Of a DNA stretch of 64,000 nt, positions 41,281-54,714 are shown piece by piece (position 1 is the stretch's first letter; each line of letters starts with the position of its first letter). The translations under genes were made by a program, and so were the position numbers. The notes under the pieces were generated by a model. It had not been told where the DNA came from, did not search any database, and was given only the letters and a program-made list of their open reading frames with translations. Source of the DNA: Bacteroidales bacterium (lineage in GTDB: Bacteria > Bacteroidota > Bacteroidia > Bacteroidales > Paludibacteraceae); the NCBI GenBank assembly GCA_015061145.1, contig SUXD01000004.1, forward strand, positions 36,931 to 100,930, given 5' to 3'.

Positions 41281-41574
41281 ATGCCCAAGGAATATATATG
41301 CCCGAGAAATTCAGAAATAAATACAACATATCGTCCACAACCCCCACAACGCCAACCACGATCCATAGCGGGTTTTAAATCGTCAACCAGCAAACAAATT
41401 GATGATTGGATTGATTCAAACAATCTGCCAATGGAAAAATTCAACAAAAACAATCCGTTGTGGCAATCGAATTATCATGACCACATTATTCGAAACGAAA
41501 TAGAATATCAACAGATAACCAATTATATTCTTTGTAATCCTATGAATTGGACGGAAGATACATTAAAAATGTAA
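41281..41574 (+). pseudogene. Remnant of a RayT/IS200-like (Y1/HUH) transposase-family gene
   Basis: The family-typical N-terminus MPEKFRNKYNISS is read from ATG 41298 in one frame and stops at 41378. The family-typical C-terminus (NPLWQSNYHDHIIRNEIEYQQITNYILCNPMNW) is in another frame. The central HUH core is missing. Confidence 0.55.
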
Positions 41575-41644
41575 TTTCACCGACCATTTTTGGTAACATT
41601 ACCAAAATAAAGAAAGAGAACTCATTCGAGCTCTCTTTCTTCAG

Positions 41645-41714
41645 TGATTCAGCTGGGGCTCGAACCCAGGACCCTTCCGTAAAACGGAATGCTCTACCCC
41701 TTTGCAACTGAAGA
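41645..41714 (-). pseudogene. Degenerate tRNA-Lys(UUU)-like copy
   Basis: The T-arm and 3' acceptor strand are identical to the intact tRNA-Lys (31-nt identity, 41644-41674 vs 42008-42038). The anticodon loop still reads UUU. The D-stem and the first two acceptor pairs are mismatched, and there is no CCA. Confidence 0.6.
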
Positions 41715-41959
41715 TACCAACGACTCGATATATTTTCGGCTCTTCTTGCCCTTTATCTCTAACTCACGCTTGTACGCATCTGTACGAAAAGAATATTCCT
41801 CTGTATAACACAAAACCCAAGGAATGCCTACATCTGTATATTTCCCTTTCTTGCGATTATGTTCGCCTAATCTGCGGATTATGTTATCCGTCGAACCTAC
41901 ATAATAGCGGTCCAACTTGGCACTGTATAATATGTAAATGTGTAAACATAGCCTGGCAT
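41694..41959 (-). pseudogene. GIY-YIG nuclease-family gene (about 85 aa), frameshifted by an 8-nt tandem duplication
   Basis: The ORF encodes ...IYILYSAKLDRYYVGSTDNIIRRLGEHN...IPWVLCYTEEY...AYKRELEIKGKKSRKYIESL. The only plausible ATG (41959, MPGYVY) is out of frame. Deleting one unit of tgtaaatg|tgtaaaca (41933-41948) gives MPGYVYILYSAKLDRYYVG. Confidence 0.6.
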
Positions 41960-41974
41960 AGGAGTTTTTTTGCA

Positions 41975-42003
41975 ATAAAAAAAGCGGAAGATTTCTCTTC
42001 CGC
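41975..42003 (-). terminator. Intrinsic terminator after tRNA-Lys
   Basis: On the minus strand: gcggaag-agaaat-cttccgc followed by T7-8, immediately 3' of the tRNA. Confidence 0.7.
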
Positions 42004-42005
42004 TT

Positions 42006-42081
42006 TGGTGATTCAGCTGGGGCTCGAACCCAGGACCCCATCCTTAAAAGGGATGTGCTCTACCAGCTGAGCTACTGAATC
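42006..42081 (-). tRNA. tRNA-Lys (anticodon UUU), CCA encoded
   Basis: Hand-folded cloverleaf: acceptor GATTCAG/CTGAATC, D-arm GCTC-AGCTGGTA-GAGC, anticodon arm CATCC-CTTTTAA-GGATG, variable GGGTC, T-arm CTGGG-TTCGAGC-CCCAG, discriminator A, CCA. 76 nt. Confidence 0.9.
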
Positions 42082-42171: not shown

Positions 42172-43635
42172 TTATTTTTTCTGAACAGGTTCACAAGTAA
42201 GTCCCACGCCTAATTTTTGGAATATCTTGCGATCCACTTCGCTCAGCATCACCATGGTATGCACTTGGCAACCGCTGAGCTTCGGCAGCTGCTCGATAGC
42301 TTTCTTGCAGTTGTCGTCTTTGAGGCTGAACATAGCCAACGCCACTAGCACCTCATCGGTATGCAAACGCGGATTGTTGCCATGCAAATACGACACTTTC
42401 ATATTCTGAATCGGCTCTATCATTTCCGCCGGTATGAGTTTCACTTTATGGTCGATGCCTGCCAGATGCTTGATGGCATTCAGAATGAGCGCGGCACTGG
42501 CGCCAAGCAACGAACTTGTCTTGGAGGTGATGATGGTTCCGTCGGCCAATTCGATGGCGGCTGTGTTCACTTTCGTCTTTTCGGCACGCTCGCGGGCAGC
42601 AACTGTCACTTTGCGGTCGGCGGTGGTTATTTTGGCCTGCTGCATCAGCAAAGCTATTTTGTTCACCTCCGACTCCTCGGCTTTGCCCTCCACCAACTTG
42701 TTGTACGAAGCGTAATAGCGGCGGATAATTTCCTGCATGGAAGCCTCGCGGCAAACTTCGTCATCGAAAATACAGAATCCCGCCATATTTACGCCCATAT
42801 CGGTAGGCGACTTGTACGGATTCTCGCCGTAAATGCCTTCGAATATGGCATTCAGCACAGGGAAAATCTCAATGTCACGATTGTAATTGACTGTTGTTTT
42901 TCCGTATGCCTCCAAATGGAACGGGTCTATCATATTCACATCGTTAAGATCGGCTGTAGCAGCTTCGTATGCTATATTCACAGGATGCTTCAACGGCAAA
43001 TTCCAGATAGGGAATGTCTCGAATTTGGCATACCCGGCTTTGATGCCTTTCTTGTTGTCTTGATAAAGTTGGCTGAGACAAACTGCCATCTTGCCGCTGC
43101 CTGGTCCTGGAGCCGTCACCACCACCAGCGGGCGCGATGTCTCCACATAATCGTTCTTGCCGAATCCCTCATCGGAATCGATAAGCTGCACATTGTGCGG
43201 ATACCCCTCGATGGTGTAATGATAGTAGGTTTTGATGTTCAGACGTTTCAAGCGGTTGCGGAAAGCCTTGGCGCTCTCCTGCCCCTTGAAGTGCGTAATG
43301 ACAACAGAACCAACCTTCAGACCGCGGCTTTCGAACTCGTTGCGCAAACGGAGCACATCCATGTCGTAGGTGATGCCGATATCGCTGCGCACTTTGTTTT
43401 TTTCGATGTCCACCGCACTGATGACAATCACAATCTCAGCATAATCGCTCAACTGCATCAGCATCTTCAGCTTGCTGTCGGGGTGAAAACCGGGCAGAAC
43501 ACGGCTGGCATGAAAGTCGTCGAACAGCTTGCCGCCAAACTCCAAATAAAGCTTGTCGCCAAACTGTGCTATACGCTCCTTTATATGTTCCGACTGAATT
43601 TTTATGTATTTGTCGTTGTCAAAACCAAGTTTCAT
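42172..43635 (-). CDS. DUF1846 (UPF0371) family protein
   Basis: 487 aa. The N-terminus MKLGFDNDKYIKIQSEHIKERI...GGKLFDDFHASRVLPGF is characteristic of this family. Confidence 0.8.
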   Translation of the reverse strand: MKLGFDNDKYIKIQSEHIKERIAQFGDKLYLEFGGKLFDDFHASRVLPGFHPDSKLKMLMQLSDYAEIVIVISAVDIEKNKVRSDIGITYDMDVLRLRNEFESRGLKVGSVVITHFKGQESAKAFRNRLKRLNIKTYYHYTIEGYPHNVQLIDSDEGFGKNDYVETSRPLVVVTAPGPGSGKMAVCLSQLYQDNKKGIKAGYAKFETFPIWNLPLKHPVNIAYEAATADLNDVNMIDPFHLEAYGKTTVNYNRDIEIFPVLNAIFEGIYGENPYKSPTDMGVNMAGFCIFDDEVCREASMQEIIRRYYASYNKLVEGKAEESEVNKIALLMQQAKITTADRKVTVAARERAEKTKVNTAAIELADGTIITSKTSSLLGASAALILNAIKHLAGIDHKVKLIPAEMIEPIQNMKVSYLHGNNPRLHTDEVLVALAMFSLKDDNCKKAIEQLPKLSGCQVHTMVMLSEVDRKIFQKLGVGLTCEPVQKK

Positions 43636-43765: not shown

Positions 43766-43884
43766 TCGTTAACTATTTCTGACCAAAAAACAGCAATAAC
43801 CAAAAGAAAGCGACACCCATAAATGGCATCGCCTTCTCCCCTGAAAATTATGTGAACTATGAAAAAGTTAGTTTTGCAGAAAAT

Positions 43885-45606
43885 CTAAAACCCTATTCGG
43901 GTGTATGAATGATGGCTGAGTTTCTCATTTTTGCACAATTCGAGCACACTTTCCAACGACAGTTTACTTCCGCCAACAATCTCGTTCATGGTCATTTTGC
44001 GAACAATATTCTCTATCTCACCGCCCGAAAACTGATATTTTTCGGCCAAAATGCGATAGTCGTCGTCTGTCAGTCCTGGCAAACGGTCGCGCCAAATGGC
44101 TATCTGCGCTTGCGGTGCCGGACGCTCGAACTTAATTTTGAAAAGAAAACGGCGCTCGAAAGCGGCATCGAGATTGTCCACAAGGTTGGTGGTGGCTATC
44201 AGTATGCCGTCAAGTTTCTCGAGTCCTTCCAATATAATATTTTGGATGGCGTTCTCGGTTTGGGCCACACTCGAAGCATCGGAGTCCTTTCGTTTGCCGA
44301 AGAGTGCGTCGGCCTCGTTGAAGAGCAGGATAGGCGCTTTTTTCTCTACCTTGCACATCTCGGCGTAATCGGTGAAAATACGCTTGATTATTTTCTCGCT
44401 CTCGCCAAACCAGCACGATTTGCTGGCAGCTATGTCAACATGATACACCTTGCGCCCCGTACGACGCGCTATCTGCATCACTGTTTCGGTTTTGCCGGTG
44501 CCAGGTGTGCCGTAGAATATGGCAGCCACCCCTCTTGGCAACGATTTCTGCTCGAGCCGCTTCTGCAAATTTCGGAAATTCGTCTCTAGCAGACTGTTTT
44601 CGAAGAAACTGATCTGACTGTTGAGCTCGCCCTCAAAATAAAGTTGTTTTTGCGGTATTTTCTTGTAGTCCAGCAACTTTTTAGAACTCTGCTTTTTGAA
44701 GAAAAGCTTTACATCATCCTCCATAAATAACTCGCGTCCTTTGTCTGTCAGCACCAATTCCGAATCAGCCAGAAAGTCGGCTCCTACTTTCTCAATCAAA
44801 CCGGCTTTCTGCAAAGCATTTCTGTCAGTCATCAGTTCGCGGGCCACCTTCATGCGACAAGACGAACGGTCGTAAATGTCGTTCAATGTAGATTCTACAT
44901 TTGTATTGCCGTATCGCTGCGACGAAGCTTTCATCGTATCATCACAGATTTCGTAAAACAAAGTGCGGTCTTCGATGCCTATTCTATTGTCAATAAGTTT
45001 TTTAATCATGCTTACTTGCGGATTTTCATCCTCCAATGTCTGCACATCTTCAAACAATATGTCAGTCAAATCGCGGTCTTCAATCATATCCGACACCTTT
45101 GAACAGAAGTCATAACGATCGAGCTGCATCTGATTGCCCAAAGAAATTTGAGGTTTGTTATCCAGAATGCAACGAATGACTTCGTCATAGATATAAAAAA
45201 ATTCTGAGCCACGAATTCGTTTCTTTCCCATGTAATGTTTTTCCTGCAATTCCTTTATTGAACGGATAATAGGAAAAGTGTTCACACCTCTGATACTGAA
45301 AAATCGCTGCAAATCAGAAATGCCTATATTGTTATCGCCATCGCCTACTTGAAGCGAAAAAATAGCGATAAATGCCGCTGCCTGCAACGGCGTACATTGC
45401 ATATATTCCGCCACTTCGAGCAACGCATTTTTTATTATTGCCAATTTTTCCTTTGTAAAACGATTTCTCTTCCCGACTTTTACCGGCTCTTGAGGCGCAT
45501 CAAACTGCTCTGGATCAATCAGATTCAGTATTGTCGTCTCCGACGAATCCATTTCTATTGACAAAATACGAAATGTTTTCAACCAATTTTTCTCCATATT
45601 TTCCAT
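43885..45606 (-). CDS. Classic-clade AAA+ ATPase with an uncharacterised N-terminal region of about 330 aa
   Basis: The C-terminal 230 aa carry Walker A GTPGTGKT, Walker B LLFNEAD, sensor-1 IATTN and the second-region-of-homology Arg (AFERRF). The N-terminal part has no motif I recognise. Confidence 0.8.
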   Translation of the reverse strand: MENMEKNWLKTFRILSIEMDSSETTILNLIDPEQFDAPQEPVKVGKRNRFTKEKLAIIKNALLEVAEYMQCTPLQAAAFIAIFSLQVGDGDNNIGISDLQRFFSIRGVNTFPIIRSIKELQEKHYMGKKRIRGSEFFYIYDEVIRCILDNKPQISLGNQMQLDRYDFCSKVSDMIEDRDLTDILFEDVQTLEDENPQVSMIKKLIDNRIGIEDRTLFYEICDDTMKASSQRYGNTNVESTLNDIYDRSSCRMKVARELMTDRNALQKAGLIEKVGADFLADSELVLTDKGRELFMEDDVKLFFKKQSSKKLLDYKKIPQKQLYFEGELNSQISFFENSLLETNFRNLQKRLEQKSLPRGVAAIFYGTPGTGKTETVMQIARRTGRKVYHVDIAASKSCWFGESEKIIKRIFTDYAEMCKVEKKAPILLFNEADALFGKRKDSDASSVAQTENAIQNIILEGLEKLDGILIATTNLVDNLDAAFERRFLFKIKFERPAPQAQIAIWRDRLPGLTDDDYRILAEKYQFSGGEIENIVRKMTMNEIVGGSKLSLESVLELCKNEKLSHHSYTRIGF

Positions 45607-45666
45607 ATTCCCTCCTTTTTTACAATTACTACTCCAAAAACATCAGGCTGTCTGCACCTTTTAATG

Positions 45667-45701
45667 CAAAGGTAAGACAACATGCTGCCAAATTGCGGCA
45701 G
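45667..45701 (-). promoter_or_regulatory. Promoter/operator of the AAA+ ATPase gene: 17-nt inverted repeat, 10-nt spacer, -7 box
   Basis: Reading the minus strand: CTGCCGCAATTTGGCAG (45701-45685), 10 nt, TACCTTTG (45674-45667). The same layout occurs at 47575-47609. Confidence 0.5.
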
Positions 45702-45731
45702 TAATATGGAAAGATTCAATAAAAAATTTTT

Positions 45732-46253
45732 TCACAATATCTCCCTCGCAATCCAAGCGCAAGCTTCAGCGTCGGCAAGGGCGTGATGATGGTTTTGGAG
45801 GATGTAGCCGCAAGCGGCTGAAACGGTGTGCAGCTGGTGGTTGGGAATCGTGCGGCCGAAATGCCGGCGCGAAGCTATGCAAGTGCACAAAAACGTATAT
45901 TCCGGATAATCCATCTGATAAGACTGAAACACTGCCCGCAGACAACTCTCATCGAAAGCCTTGTTGTGCGCCACAAATGGCACGCCGCTATCGGCAAAAC
46001 AAGGAAAAGTGCGCGACACCTGCGCCATCGCGCGCCGCCACACTTCGGGAAACAGCGGCGCACTATCGGTATCCGCAGCCGACAAACCGTGAACCTCCTG
46101 GCAGAAAATGGCATAATAGTTGGGCGTAGGCTTTATCAAACTATAGAAAGAATCGACAATTTCGCCGCCTTTCACCACTACGATGCCCACACTGCAAACG
46201 CTGGAACGGCGACCGTTGGCCGTCTCAAAATCTATCGCCACAAAATTTTTCAT
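45732..46253 (-). CDS. DEDDh (DnaQ-like) 3'-5' exonuclease
   Basis: ExoI AIDFETAN, ExoII AHNKAFDESCL and ExoIII HHALADAEA. 173 aa. Confidence 0.8.
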   Translation of the reverse strand: MKNFVAIDFETANGRRSSVCSVGIVVVKGGEIVDSFYSLIKPTPNYYAIFCQEVHGLSAADTDSAPLFPEVWRRAMAQVSRTFPCFADSGVPFVAHNKAFDESCLRAVFQSYQMDYPEYTFLCTCIASRRHFGRTIPNHQLHTVSAACGYILQNHHHALADAEACAWIAREIL

Positions 46254-47182
46254 TTACGGTTATTGCTATAGATATTCAACATTTTTTGAACCTCGTTCTT
46301 GAACTCATTGCGAAGCTTTTTGGGCGAAAGGACTTCAACCTGCGAAAGATAGGAAGCCAGCACTTGCTTAAATTCAAAATTAGGCACCAGATTAAACTCC
46401 AACACCGAATATTCCGGCGTTCGTTTTATTAATTTTTGCGACCGATGCAGTGGCAAACTCAGAAAATAATCCACTTGGTCGGCATTTATCTTCACACAAA
46501 TGCGCTCAGGCTTTTTCTGCGAAAGCCCTACACCATAAATATTATCAAAATATTTTTTAGGGTCTACGCTCGAAGGCACGATATAGACTTCCTCTATTTG
46601 CCGCAAGTCTTCTATTCTGTCGAGCGCAAAAATGCGTATATCCTTTTTCTCCTCAACATATCCAAGCATGTACCACCGTTGCTTGAACACTTTAAGGCAA
46701 TAGGGATGAACATGGTATGTATTCGGCTCTTTGCCGAAACTATGGTGCACTATCTCTAACTTCCGTTTGTCGCGCAGACTTTTTATTATTATTGTCAGAT
46801 ATTTTTGTCCGGCAGGTATTTCTTCGAAAAAAATGCTTTGCTGCACATCCTTGTCCCTGCTCTCCATAATCATACTGTTCACCGAAAGAGCATTGAAAAG
46901 CCAACTGTGCAAACCTTTTAAAGCCATATTATCGCCGCCGTTCTCGATGAAATAGGTTCCCTTAGAGCGGTTGCAAGCTATATTGACACCGAAAAGCTCT
47001 TCGGCCGCCACACGCCATCTGTGAAAAGTGCGTTCCGGAAGACTGCCCTCATTTTCTTCGTTCAAAACGCTAGCGCTCCATCTCCGGTCTATCTCCCCGC
47101 GGGTTATCTCGCCCGATGCATTTATCACCTCCACTAACCAGATATAGCAGTTGAACAATGTTGATGCAGATGTTTTTTTCAT
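46250..47182 (-). CDS. WYL-domain transcriptional regulator (wHTH-WYL-WCX architecture)
   Basis: N-terminal wHTH-like region (LFNCYIWLVEVINASGEITRGEI), WYL core (HPYCLKVFKQRWYMLGYVEEKKDIRIFALDRI) and a C-terminal extension. Its stop overlaps the exonuclease start (ATGA). Confidence 0.75.
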   Translation of the reverse strand: MKKTSASTLFNCYIWLVEVINASGEITRGEIDRRWSASVLNEENEGSLPERTFHRWRVAAEELFGVNIACNRSKGTYFIENGGDNMALKGLHSWLFNALSVNSMIMESRDKDVQQSIFFEEIPAGQKYLTIIIKSLRDKRKLEIVHHSFGKEPNTYHVHPYCLKVFKQRWYMLGYVEEKKDIRIFALDRIEDLRQIEEVYIVPSSVDPKKYFDNIYGVGLSQKKPERICVKINADQVDYFLSLPLHRSQKLIKRTPEYSVLEFNLVPNFEFKQVLASYLSQVEVLSPKKLRNEFKNEVQKMLNIYSNNRK

Positions 47183-47295
47183 GATGATGCATTTAAGTTA
47201 AATTGCTAAAGATATTTAATGTCACCAGATTTGCATTCAGAAAATCTATCTGATTCCGAATTTCTTGCGTTGCGTCATTCGGATATTGCAATTTT

Positions 47296-47535
47296 TCATC
47301 TTCTTTTATGTTTATCGGGTACGACAATTTCAAGATGATTAGCACCATAAAACGCAGGGTCATTTTCAATTTCTGTCAAATATTCCTGTTCTCTTTCTTT
47401 TGAATATGCCAATGCTAAATCTGTATTCCAGTCCAACAGTTCCCAATAATCCCAGTCGGCTTCTTTCATCATAAGGTAATCTTCATCTGACAATGGCAGT
47501 TTGATTTTTTCGAAATCTTCTTTTGTAAGTTTCAT
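47296..47535 (-). CDS. Hypothetical small acidic protein (79 aa)
   Basis: ORF starting MKLTKEDFEKIKLPLSDEDYLMMKEADWDYWELLDW.... The ATG lies 40 nt downstream of a TAatTTTG box. No recognisable domain. Confidence 0.45.
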   Translation of the reverse strand: MKLTKEDFEKIKLPLSDEDYLMMKEADWDYWELLDWNTDLALAYSKEREQEYLTEIENDPAFYGANHLEIVVPDKHKRR

Positions 47536-47574
47536 AACAGTAGTATTTAATTGGTTAATAATCTTCCTTTTTGT

Positions 47575-47609
47575 CAAAATTAGTAAAATCAACTGACAAA
47601 TTGCGGCAG
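47575..47609 (-). promoter_or_regulatory. Promoter/operator of the small-ORF/WYL/exonuclease unit
   Basis: Reading the minus strand: CTGCCGCAATTTGTCAG (47609-47593), 10 nt, TAATTTTG (47582-47575). The repeat is 16/17 identical to the element at 45685-45701, with identical spacing. Confidence 0.5.
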
Positions 47610-47673: not shown

Positions 47674-48393
47674 ATGGAAAAATGGTATTCACGCACCGAA
47701 CTTTTGTTGGGTAACGAAAAAACAATCCTTCTGCAAAACGCCCATGTAATGGTAGTGGGCATTGGCGGCGTAGGCGGCATGGCTGCCGAAATGCTATGCC
47801 GGGCCGGCATAGGCGAAATGACAATAATCGATGCCGACACTGTTTCTGTCACCAACCTCAACCGACAAATCATTTCGTTGAACGACAACGTAGGGAAAAC
47901 AAAAGCCGAATGCTGGGCAGAACGGCTGAAAAAAATAAATCCTGCGCTGAAACTCAATGTTTTTGCAGCATATATGAACGAAGAAAACATGCTTAATTTC
48001 TTCGAAGGGAAAAAGATAGACTTTGTAGCCGACGCTATCGACACCATCGCGCCAAAAATAGCGCTGATTGAACATTGCATCAAAAACAACATCCCTATCA
48101 TATCGAGCATGGGGTCGGGAGCAAAAACCGACATCACAAAAATATGCCTCACCGACATTGCCAAAACATACAACTGCCGACTGGCGAAAACCGTAAGGCA
48201 ACGACTGGCAAAAGATGGATTCAGACATCTGCCTGTTGTATTCAGCAGCGAACTGCCCGACAAAAATGCCATTATCAGCGTTGAAAACGAGAAAAACAAA
48301 AAATCGACAACCGGCACCATATCATACATGCCAGCTGCCTTCGGATGCTTTATGAGCGCATATATCATCAAAAGACTGTCATCCGACGACTAA
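47674..48393 (+). CDS. tcdA: tRNA threonylcarbamoyladenosine dehydratase (ThiF/E1-like)
   Basis: RTELLLGNEK...VMVVGIGGVGGMAAEMLCRAGIGEMTIIDAD nucleotide fold and NRQ motif. 239 aa. Confidence 0.85.
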   Translation: MEKWYSRTELLLGNEKTILLQNAHVMVVGIGGVGGMAAEMLCRAGIGEMTIIDADTVSVTNLNRQIISLNDNVGKTKAECWAERLKKINPALKLNVFAAYMNEENMLNFFEGKKIDFVADAIDTIAPKIALIEHCIKNNIPIISSMGSGAKTDITKICLTDIAKTYNCRLAKTVRQRLAKDGFRHLPVVFSSELPDKNAIISVENEKNKKSTTGTISYMPAAFGCFMSAYIIKRLSSDD

Positions 48394-53724: not shown

Positions 53725-54714
53725 ATGAAAATAGGCAACATAGAATTTGGCAAATATCCTCTTTTTCTGGCTCCGATGGAAGATGTAACCGATCCGGCAT
53801 TCCGTCAGTTTTGCAAGCGTTTTGGCGCTGATATGCTTTATACCGAATTCATTTCGGCTGATGCGCTTATCCGTGATATTTCTGCCACTACCCGCAAACT
53901 CACCATTTACGACAGCGAGCGCCCTGTAGCGATACAACTTTATGGTCGCGAACCGGAAGCTATGGCCGAGGCGGCAAAAATTGCTGAAAGTGTTCATTCC
54001 GAGATAATCGACATAAATTTTGGCTGCCCCGTGAAGAAAGTGGCGGGCAAAGGCGCTGGAGCCGGTCTGTTGCGCGATGTGCCAAAAATGCTCGAAATAA
54101 CACGCCAGGTAGTGAATTCCGTTTCGGTGCCTGTAACTGTGAAAACCCGTTTGGGATGGAACGACGACGAAAAAATCATCACTCAAATAGCTGAACCGCT
54201 GCAAGATTGCGGCATTCAGGCGCTTACCATACATGGACGGACAAGGGCGCAGATGTACATCGGCAATGCCGACTGGACATTGATAGGCGAGGTGAAAAAC
54301 AATCCTCGCATCCATATTCCGATTATCGGAAACGGCGACGTATGCACGCCCGAACGCGCTAAGGAGTGTTTCGATCTTTATGGTGTGGATGCTGTCATGG
54401 TGGGAAGGGCTTCTATCGGCAAGCCGTGGGTTTTTGAGGAGATGAAGCACTACCTCTCTACGGGCGAACTGTTGCCGCCAAAATCATTTGCTGCTTGTGT
54501 GGATATTCTGAAAGAATATATAGGCAAGAGCATCGAATGGGTAGGCGACGAGCGGCGCGGTATTGTGCATGTGCGTCGTCATTTGGCTGCCTCGCCTATC
54601 TTCAAAGGCATTCCCGACTTTAAACCTACGCGTATCCGCATGCTTCGTGCCGATACACTGGCGGAATTGTTCGATATTTTTGAAGAAATAGAGCGGAACT
54701 TTATACGTGAGTGA
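53725..54714 (+). CDS. dusB: tRNA-dihydrouridine synthase
   Basis: LAPMEDVTDPAFR, IDINFGCPVKKV and TIHGRTR motifs. The ATG at 53725 is chosen because the longer ORF overlaps the divergent U32 gene. Confidence 0.9.
   Translation: MKIGNIEFGKYPLFLAPMEDVTDPAFRQFCKRFGADMLYTEFISADALIRDISATTRKLTIYDSERPVAIQLYGREPEAMAEAAKIAESVHSEIIDINFGCPVKKVAGKGAGAGLLRDVPKMLEITRQVVNSVSVPVTVKTRLGWNDDEKIITQIAEPLQDCGIQALTIHGRTRAQMYIGNADWTLIGEVKNNPRIHIPIIGNGDVCTPERAKECFDLYGVDAVMVGRASIGKPWVFEEMKHYLSTGELLPPKSFAACVDILKEYIGKSIEWVGDERRGIVHVRRHLAASPIFKGIPDFKPTRIRMLRADTLAELFDIFEEIERNFIRE

Follow-up and report, generated by a model that had tools for sequence, protein, structure and literature searches.

WYL-family transcription factors are already known to gate defence and damage-response modules in bacteria. 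Here, we describe a WYL-linked nuclease and ATPase module from a member of the Bacteroidales (Paludibacteraceae), encoded at positions 43885–47609 of a 64,000-nucleotide (nt) stretch of DNA, referred to below as the window (GenBank assembly GCA_015061145.1, contig SUXD01000004.1, positions 36,931 to 100,930 of the forward strand). ORF calling places four open reading frames (ORFs) in this region, all on the minus strand, for an AAA+ ATPase, a DEDDh exonuclease, a WYL regulator and a small acidic protein. Immunity and damage-response regulation are poorly known in the Bacteroidales, which are dominant gut and rumen bacteria. New here are the ATPase family, the WYL–exonuclease head module and an operator-defined regulon in the Bacteroidota. 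Judging by sequence and by analogy with characterized regulators, the module is probably a minimal copy of a Bacteroidota-wide, WYL-controlled regulon, with inducible defence against mobile elements as its most likely role.

One point of comparison is the BrxR family of WYL regulators, which control phage-defence islands (Picton et al. 2022, PMC9122601). Like BrxR, the protein described here combines WYL and WCX domains with a putative winged helix-turn-helix (wHTH) and belongs to a type that heads variable defence cargo, including type IV restriction of the GmrSD family (BrxU); in the window itself, the cargo consists of the exonuclease and the ATPase alone. As with BrxR, inverted repeats at promoters are its predicted binding sites. 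The WYL similarity is only weak, however, and the operator described below also serves unlinked genes, which makes it the mark of a regulon. BrxR-family regulators of phage-defence islands are reportedly also treated by Luyten et al. in 2022. BrxR is a repressor, whereas the promoter geometry here suggests activation, and neither a coupled DEDDh exonuclease nor an AAA+ ATPase partner has been described for it.

PafBC of mycobacteria and DriD of Caulobacter, both of which sense single-stranded DNA (ssDNA), and DdaA of the Moraxellaceae offer a second comparison. As in the present case, a palindrome defines a multi-gene regulon and a fixed site replaces the missing −35 or −33 element. At DriD promoters, the site lies at a fixed position over the missing −35 element (PMC13004042), and DdaA activates both damage-response and defence genes (PMC12392091). 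The present regulon differs in that it belongs to another phylum, with Bacteroidetes −7/−33 promoters, that the operator preceded no repair gene in the loci scanned here, and that it comprises the ATPase with tandem winged helices, the DEDDh exonuclease, a PLD nuclease, GmrSD and McrBC.

A preliminary description of the locus, made from the sequence alone, held that no named defence system matches it. PADLOC-DB v2, NCBIfam and the literature searched likewise yielded no named system for the module, and the PADLOC and NCBIfam matches were partial only (IetA and PDC-S48). In the literature searched, there was nothing on a WYL/DEDDh/AAA combination in Bacteroides and no description of a WYL regulon for the Bacteroidales. 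IetA, from the IetAS system (Gao et al. 2020), is the best PADLOC and NCBIfam match to the ATPase and is likewise of the classic AAA clade, but it lacks the 330-amino-acid (aa) tandem winged-helix N-domain of the window protein, and NCBIfam IteA scored 73.8 bits against a cut-off of 510. The cassette has no protease gene that could correspond to the IetS serine protease, and the matches listed for 94 ATPase neighbours include no serine-protease family. Type IV restriction systems are linked to the module more directly, since in relatives McrBC and GmrSD share operons or the operator with module genes. The layout of the ATPase, with an N-terminal putative DNA reader, a C-terminal AAA+ motor and a separate nuclease, also resembles the logic of McrB–McrC. 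Unlike McrB-type GTPases, however, the window ATPase belongs to the classic AAA clade and has a protein-translocating pore loop.

An operator shared by two transcription units

The two transcription units of the locus carry the same operator and −7 box module, as the preliminary description had proposed and a sequence scan confirmed. The 17-mer CTGCCGCAATTTGNCAG is present in exactly two copies in the 64 kb, each followed after 10 nt by a Bacteroides −7 box (TAnnTTTG). Copy 1 (CTGCCGCAATTTGTCAG, 47593–47609, minus strand) is an imperfect palindrome, TGCC-N7-GTCA, and precedes the unit made up of the small ORF, the WYL gene and the exonuclease gene. Its −7 box, TAATTTTG (47575–47582, minus strand), is of the Bacteroides type, in a geometry common to relatives. 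Copy 2 (CTGCCGCAATTTGGCAG, 45685–45701, minus strand) is a perfect TGCC-N7-GGCA palindrome preceding the ATPase gene, with the −7 box TACCTTTG (45667–45674, minus strand) and without the canonical −33 TTTG at 19–21 nt. The sole other near-match in the window (54199–54215) has three mismatches and is intragenic, and was rejected as a chance occurrence.

The same module recurs in relatives, and of all features of the association it is the most conserved. The window and the loci of its relatives (designated by L numbers), 2.27 Mb in all, were scanned with the pattern TGCC-N7-G[GT]CA + 9–13 nt + TAnnTTTG, which gave 22 matches, compared with 3 for a non-palindromic control. The identifiable genes downstream encode the ATPase (8), the WYL protein or small ORF–WYL (3), the exonuclease (2, one of them heading an McrBC operon) and a PLD nuclease; other matches precede small unannotated ORFs in the same loci, and two have no downstream ORF. 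None of the canonical repair genes recA, uvr and imuAB lies under the operator in these 2.27 Mb. In related gut and rumen Bacteroidales, the operator of the window module also precedes restriction-type anti-phage nucleases, and the window-type module is found before the ATPase genes of L161, L011, L014, L050, L064 and L171. The ATPase and WYL promoters of relatives share locus-specific palindromes that end 8–12 nt upstream of the −7 box and vary by lineage: TGCC-N7-GGCA in Bacteroidales, CGACAC...GTGTCG in Flavobacterium and TGTATCA-N5-TGATACA in other lineages. These lineage-differing operators were found only by analysis of palindromes and spacing; the exact window operator had no match in the first 80 ATPase loci. 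What is conserved is a regulon as opposed to an operon of four genes, and its sequence-defined operator, if correctly read, would make the regulon readable from any Bacteroidales genome.

The WYL gene (46250–47182, minus strand) encodes a protein of 310 aa with a WYL domain at aa 128–194 (Pfam, E = 1.4e-16) and a WCX domain at aa 226–302 (E = 1.3e-7). The N-terminal 115 aa have no Pfam match, and the conserved helix pattern in an alignment of homologues points to a wHTH-like N-terminus. Among solved structures, there is weak similarity to PafBC (6sj9, E = 3e-4) and CapW (9c5g, E = 8e-3). The WYL stop codon shares 4 nt (ATGA) with the start of the exonuclease gene (45732–46253, minus strand, 173 aa), an overlap already noted in the preliminary description and evident from the coordinates. 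WYL–exonuclease pairs recur in L166, L172, L173, L050, L046, L037 and L027, some with the same 4-nt overlap. The exonuclease itself, a predicted DnaQ-like 3′–5′ enzyme, matches RNase_T (E = 1.4e-13) and Rv2179c-like (E = 7e-15) in Pfam, and its relatives among known structures include the PolC exonuclease (2p1j) and the DinG exonuclease (8zef). Its ExoI, ExoII and ExoIII motifs are complete, as had been claimed: D-x-E, D and H-x4-D can all be read in the translation, in VAIDFET (D8-F-E10), AHNKAFDES (AFD) and HHALADAEA (H-ALAD), respectively. In PADLOC, the DEDDh domain matches PDC-S48 (85 bits) and CRISPR-associated DEDDh (77 bits). The PDC-S48 models are 411–512 aa long, whereas the window exonuclease is a stand-alone, WYL-coupled protein.

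We take the WYL protein to be the factor that binds the operator, mainly because its recognition helix covaries with operator type. The helix RTFHRWR accompanies loci with the TGCC-N7-GGCA operator, and the sister group with SNFHRWK has a different motif. As a separate observation, a second conserved promoter motif, CACTCTTTCAGTTTGTGGGAGT + 10 nt + TAATTTTG, lies upstream of the WYL genes in L172–L175 (e.g., at approximately 600–676 in L173) and also upstream of a 103-aa ORF at position 10526 of L172. Motifs of the CACTCTTTCAGTTTGTGGGAGT type accompany the SNFHRWK helix, not RTFHRWR.

The geometry of the ATPase promoters is distinct. A TTTG inside the palindrome, 14–15 nt from the −7 box, was found in 15 of 34 ATPase promoters, compared with 13 of 156 others (p = 2.5e-6), and the canonical −33 TTTG spacing (19–21 nt) was seen in none of the 34, compared with 21 of the 156 (p = 0.016). 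Because the operator position is fixed and the −33 element is missing, activation in the manner of DriD, PafBC or DdaA is, by analogy, marginally favoured over repression like that by BrxR or CapW. The same regulon with the opposite sign is a strong contender, if somewhat less probable than not: the WYL protein would then be a repressor of the BrxR/CapW type that occludes the promoter and is released upon infection. Its WYL and WCX architecture and its position at the head of islands match those of BrxR and CapW, and the palindrome overlaps the promoter core. However, the ATPase promoters systematically lack a −33 element at canonical spacing, and the distance from the palindrome to the −7 box is fixed across phylum-level divergence. 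Such a fixed distance is expected of an activator that substitutes for the −33 contact; a repressor site needs none. Activation, if correct, would make this a testable case of WYL-type activation at Bacteroidetes −7/−33 promoters.

The ATPase and its family

The ATPase gene (43885–45606, minus strand) encodes a protein of 573 aa with a Pfam AAA domain (PF00004) at aa 363–494 (E = 1.6e-21). The preliminary description had reported about 330 N-terminal residues matching nothing, and Pfam is indeed blank for aa 1–330. In AlphaFold models (predicted local distance difference test, pLDDT, 87), two winged-helix-like units at approximately aa 73–139 and 211–286 are placed ahead of the AAA domain. The layout is that of an N-domain of aa 1 to about 305, followed by a classic-clade AAA domain at approximately aa 326–573. 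The ATPase motifs had all been described as intact. This holds for Walker A (GTPGTGKT, G366-TPGTGKT-373, invariant in 65 homologues), for sensor-1 (N474) and for the second-region-of-homology arginines R485/R486; the pore loop W399-F400-G401, which aligns to YYG of VAT, is intact as well. It does not hold for Walker B, which reads ILLFN430E431AD, with Asn-Glu (N430-E431) instead of Asp-Glu. In the alignment with VAT, N430 takes the place of the Walker B Asp; the catalytic Glu is retained, and the Asn is invariant in the same number of homologues (65). The Asn-Glu Walker B is an unexplained trait of the family.

In Foldseek, the full ATPase model returned AAA proteins only, with proteasome Rpt subunits, Vps4 and ATAD1 as the top matches to the AAA domain, and by sequence this domain matched VAT, Afg2 and CDC48. 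With the N-domain alone, the Foldseek matches were weak and of the winged-helix kind, with a best E of 0.024 in the PDB (MarR/MexR, ScpB, MukE) and 0.0099 in BFVD. These matches were too weak for the N-domain fold to be assigned to a family, and such an assignment was dropped. Full-length homologues of about 550–700 aa, with 33–66% identity, are common in Bacteroidales, Flavobacteriales and Treponema. The N-domain is almost confined to proteins of ATPase size, with 235 clusters at 50% identity (E ≤ 1e-3) among 1.84 billion representatives. In longer ATPases of 690–709 aa (L009, L011, L014 and L016–L025), the N-domain query aligned twice, at separate places, a sign that the winged-helix region may be partly duplicated within these proteins.

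Since the classic aromatic AAA pore loop is conserved, the ATPase is probably a protein unfoldase or remodeller that works as a protein-translocating hexamer. If this is true, the tandem winged-helix proteins with a classic AAA domain and an Asn-Glu Walker B would constitute a new candidate effector family.

The ATPase has just two relatives in the IMG/VR viral contigs, on contigs of 240–340 kb. In viral contigs, the 16-mer operator turned up 29 times, but no copy was accompanied by a −7 box, and most lay in two or three families of related contigs with identical flanks. A phage origin of the module was rejected on the grounds that the ATPase relatives were so few and that the operators there were judged to be chance occurrences.

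In two of the loci, a metalloprotease gene is found directly upstream of the ATPase gene and co-oriented with it. The one in L024 (7305–7751) encodes a small, SprT-like zinc metalloprotease (HEMIH), and that in L026 (7148–7840) is probably YgjP-like (HELVH). The pairing may recall that of Cdc48 with SPRTN, which serves DNA–protein crosslink repair, or it may be a coincidence, as there are two cases only.

Conservation and role of the regulon

Co-occurrence was counted in 80 ATPase-centred loci from different species, with partners scored within 8 kb. A WYL homologue was present in at least 25 of the 80, and four Spirochaete loci had a divergent WYL protein in addition. Less frequent partners were the exonuclease (9–11 loci), a GmrSD_N protein pair (8), a PLD nuclease (5) and RtcB with a PrfH-like protein (4–5); the small ORF was found in none. 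Bacteroidetes encode on average about 2.1 WYL proteins per genome (PMC6789036), and the co-occurrence of WYL protein and ATPase is therefore far above chance. Gene order and orientation differ among the loci, and the ATPase gene usually stands alone under its own operator-bearing promoter. Its distribution is patchy and its genomic position variable, with paralogues within single genomes. The closest relative of the ATPase (66% identity) is found with a WYL gene and the same operator beside a tRNA, at a different genomic place and without the exonuclease. Thus, the WYL-linked nuclease and ATPase module of the preliminary description survives in part: the link is conserved, as seen in co-occurrence, shared operators and helix covariation, but the dedicated four-gene cassette is not, as the small ORF is an element insert (see below), the exonuclease is optional and the ATPase is usually alone.

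Seven WYL homologues (42–45% identity) were sampled irrespective of the ATPase. All seven head or sit among genes for GmrSD, McrBC, PLD, PD-(D/E)XK (PDDEXK_4), type I or DpnII restriction–modification (RM), AbiH or Fic; four of these loci contain the exonuclease and one the ATPase.

A second WYL paralogue was observed in L057 (4804–7736) and L068 (4808–7724), divergent to genes for RtcB and an RF-1-domain (PrfH-like) protein and immediately upstream of the ATPase gene. A separate palindrome, TTGCGCAAAT..ATTGCGCA, goes with this paralogue, whereas the promoter of RtcB in L063 carries the ATPase-type operator.

Because the operator of relatives also stands before GmrSD pairs, McrBC and PLD nucleases, we read the regulon as an inducible defence against mobile elements. 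The defence role is inferred from the company that relatives keep (GmrSD, McrBC, PLD, RM, AbiH and Fic). In the mechanism that we propose, a WYL dimer would bind the 17-bp palindrome TGCC-N7-GGCA at the two promoters, where it would occupy the usual position of the −33 element, 10 nt upstream of the −7 box. Promoter 1 would drive the WYL protein's own gene together with the captured small ORF and the DEDDh exonuclease gene, whose translation is coupled to that of WYL, and promoter 2 the ATPase. By analogy with characterized WYL regulators, the WYL domain may sense a nucleic-acid signal, which would arise upon phage or plasmid attack or DNA damage and switch both units on. The exonuclease could then trim free 3′ ends and thereby degrade invader DNA, the inducing ssDNA, or both. 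The ATPase would act as a hexameric motor of the classic AAA type with a tandem winged-helix N-domain, perhaps recruited to DNA or to a specific target.

Several observations weigh against this interpretation. The loci were picked by similarity to the ATPase or the WYL protein, which biases the co-occurrence counts upwards. The immediate neighbours of the ATPase are mostly ordinary housekeeping genes and a minority match defence models; the term “defence island” therefore fits a subset of ATPase loci only. The window itself has no restriction-type gene (no GmrSD and no McrBC). The WYL promoters of some relatives (L161, L170) have no operator, and L175 pairs a type-1 operator with a WYL protein of the other helix type, which leaves a paralogue acting in trans or some different factor as possible binders. 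The Walker B Asn may signal a slow or switch-like ATPase instead of a processive motor. Finally, the matches to named defence proteins are confined to single domains: PADLOC IetA (83 bits) covers only the AAA domain (model positions 88–320 of 374), and the PDC-S48 match covers only an exonuclease-type N-terminus (model positions 1–164 and 20–177).

A different role, which we regard as unlikely though deserving of serious attention, is an SOS-like response to DNA damage, in which the WYL protein is the Bacteroidales counterpart of PafBC, DriD and DdaA, and the exonuclease and the ATPase act in repair, for instance in end processing and the removal of proteins stuck on DNA. In their geometry, the promoters are the same as those activated by DriD-type regulators, the exonuclease resembles those of DnaQ, PolC and DinG, and the ATPase often stands alone between housekeeping genes, a few of its neighbours being SprT-like or YgjP-like metalloproteases. 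RtcB–PrfH repair modules are co-regulated in some loci. On the other hand, the scan placed no recA, uvr or imuAB under the operator, and the cargo that recurs is type IV restriction and other restriction-type nucleases, whose islands also hold RM, AbiH and Fic. The patchy distribution, the variable position and the paralogues within one genome also speak against a damage response. DdaA shows that the two roles need not exclude each other, and they may overlap here.

With some hesitation, defence and promoter geometry might be combined into a WYL-activated “alarm” regulon of the Bacteroidota and some Treponema, in which the palindrome replaces the −33 element, as with DriD, PafBC and DdaA. The most characteristic output would be a new family of tandem winged-helix AAA+ unfoldases, with exonucleases, PLD nucleases and type IV restriction exchanged as cargo, and the antitoxin-like gene captured in the window would serve as an anti-addiction device. 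This is a tentative proposal, less probable than the defence role as such.

The small ORF and the surroundings of the module

The small acidic ORF (47296–47535, minus strand) encodes 79 aa from its ATG, with 20 D+E and 11 K+R; an alternative TTG start (98 aa) would overlap the promoter. It has no Pfam or other family match and no detectable sequence similarity to known epsilon antitoxins. Its 16 homologues are 77–91% identical, and those on longer contigs lie on an element with relaxase, MobC and type IV coupling protein (T4CP) genes (L162–L165). The window matches this element at the nucleotide level over 335 nt, beginning 27 nt ahead of the ATG and reaching about 70 nt beyond the stop codon. 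This fragment of a conjugative or mobilisable element (47229–47562, minus strand; 85% identity to L162 7974–8308) holds the small ORF and about 75 nt of the frameshifted 5′ end of the element's Zeta_toxin-domain gene. On the element, the small ORF is ATGA-coupled to this downstream gene for a 471-aa protein (L162 8237–9649; also L163–L165), which has a P-loop (GCPGSGKGT) and a weak Zeta_toxin match of 24 bits (cut-off 22.3). The next genes on the element encode a Toprim protein and then a helicase of >2000 aa.

A small acidic ORF immediately upstream of, and ATGA-coupled to, a P-loop Zeta_toxin-domain gene is reminiscent of epsilon/zeta toxin–antitoxin systems, and the pair may be a new addiction module of the epsilon/zeta-like kind, carried by mobile elements of Bacteroidales. 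In the window, by contrast, the toxin gene is a stub and the antitoxin-like gene is driven by a WYL-type promoter. Because only the frameshifted stub is left, the gene is an orphan, and we read it as a candidate epsilon-like antitoxin that was taken up into the 5′ leader of the WYL operon, although the zeta assignment is weak. It provides a separate, small and concrete example of conflict between chromosome and mobile elements. The small ORF came into this lineage as a passenger, inserted from a conjugative element, and does not belong to the conserved part of the module: none of the 80 ATPase loci or the 7 WYL loci contains it, nor does the locus of the 66%-identity ATPase relative. A 75-aa ORF between the WYL and ATPase genes in L161 was considered as a counterpart and rejected, being unrelated and overlapping the promoter. 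A dedicated four-gene system with the small protein as an integral part, for instance by inhibiting the ATPase or the nuclease or by acting as antitoxin to either, is accordingly very improbable. The ORF does stand first behind the operator promoter and has a conserved coding sequence, but these absences, the homologues on the relaxase/T4CP element with their coupling to a Zeta_toxin-domain gene, and the frameshifted start of the element's toxin gene in the window all argue against it.

The same gene arrangement is found at the same place in L166, a second assembly of the species (a Paludibacteraceae metagenome-assembled genome), with flanking genes, WYL gene and exonuclease gene 99–100% identical and operator copy 1 identical. 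Despite this, the small ORF is only 85% identical to its counterpart at L166 8001–8240. The differences are concentrated midway along the ORF, where the L166 allele resembles the copy on the conjugative element. Such divergence between the two assemblies suggests gene conversion or diversifying selection.

The module ends 45 nt past the ATPase stop codon, at a terminator-like hairpin (43802–43840, minus strand) that has 16 pairs and, behind them, a T-rich tail. ORF coordinates and Pfam agree with the four co-oriented minus-strand genes originally placed between DUF1846 (42172–43635) and the ThiF/TcdA-like gene tcdA (47674–48393). That the genes are unrelated neighbours, with an ordinary housekeeping ATPase and exonuclease, is scarcely credible: the GC content of the region shows no anomaly and the module is at the same place in the second assembly, but in Bacteroidales, Flavobacteriales and Spirochaetes alike co-occurrence is conserved and operators are shared, the ATPase family comprises no more than its 235 clusters, and there is no DUF1846 synteny in 80 relatives. 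In these 80 metagenomic DUF1846 relatives (63–88% identity), neither the cassette nor tcdA adjoined DUF1846; synteny is not conserved at this level of identity, and the comparison is uninformative on presence/absence polymorphism. The one close relative, L166, shares the arrangement of the window.

The nearby tRNA-Lys gene (42006–42081), the sole Rfam match, is 1.8 kb from the module, close to the 2 kb first given. The 3′ half of the gene is duplicated (41639–41691 versus 42003–42055; 53 nt, 83% identity, 364 nt apart), and a GIY-YIG-domain ORF (41694–42041) sits between the duplicate and the intact gene. Together, these features look like an old integration scar at the tRNA. A 97-aa ORF beside the scar (41281–41574) has no Pfam match; its C-terminus (…HDHIIRNE…YILCNP…) may be akin to the ends of Y1 transposases of the IS200/RayT type.

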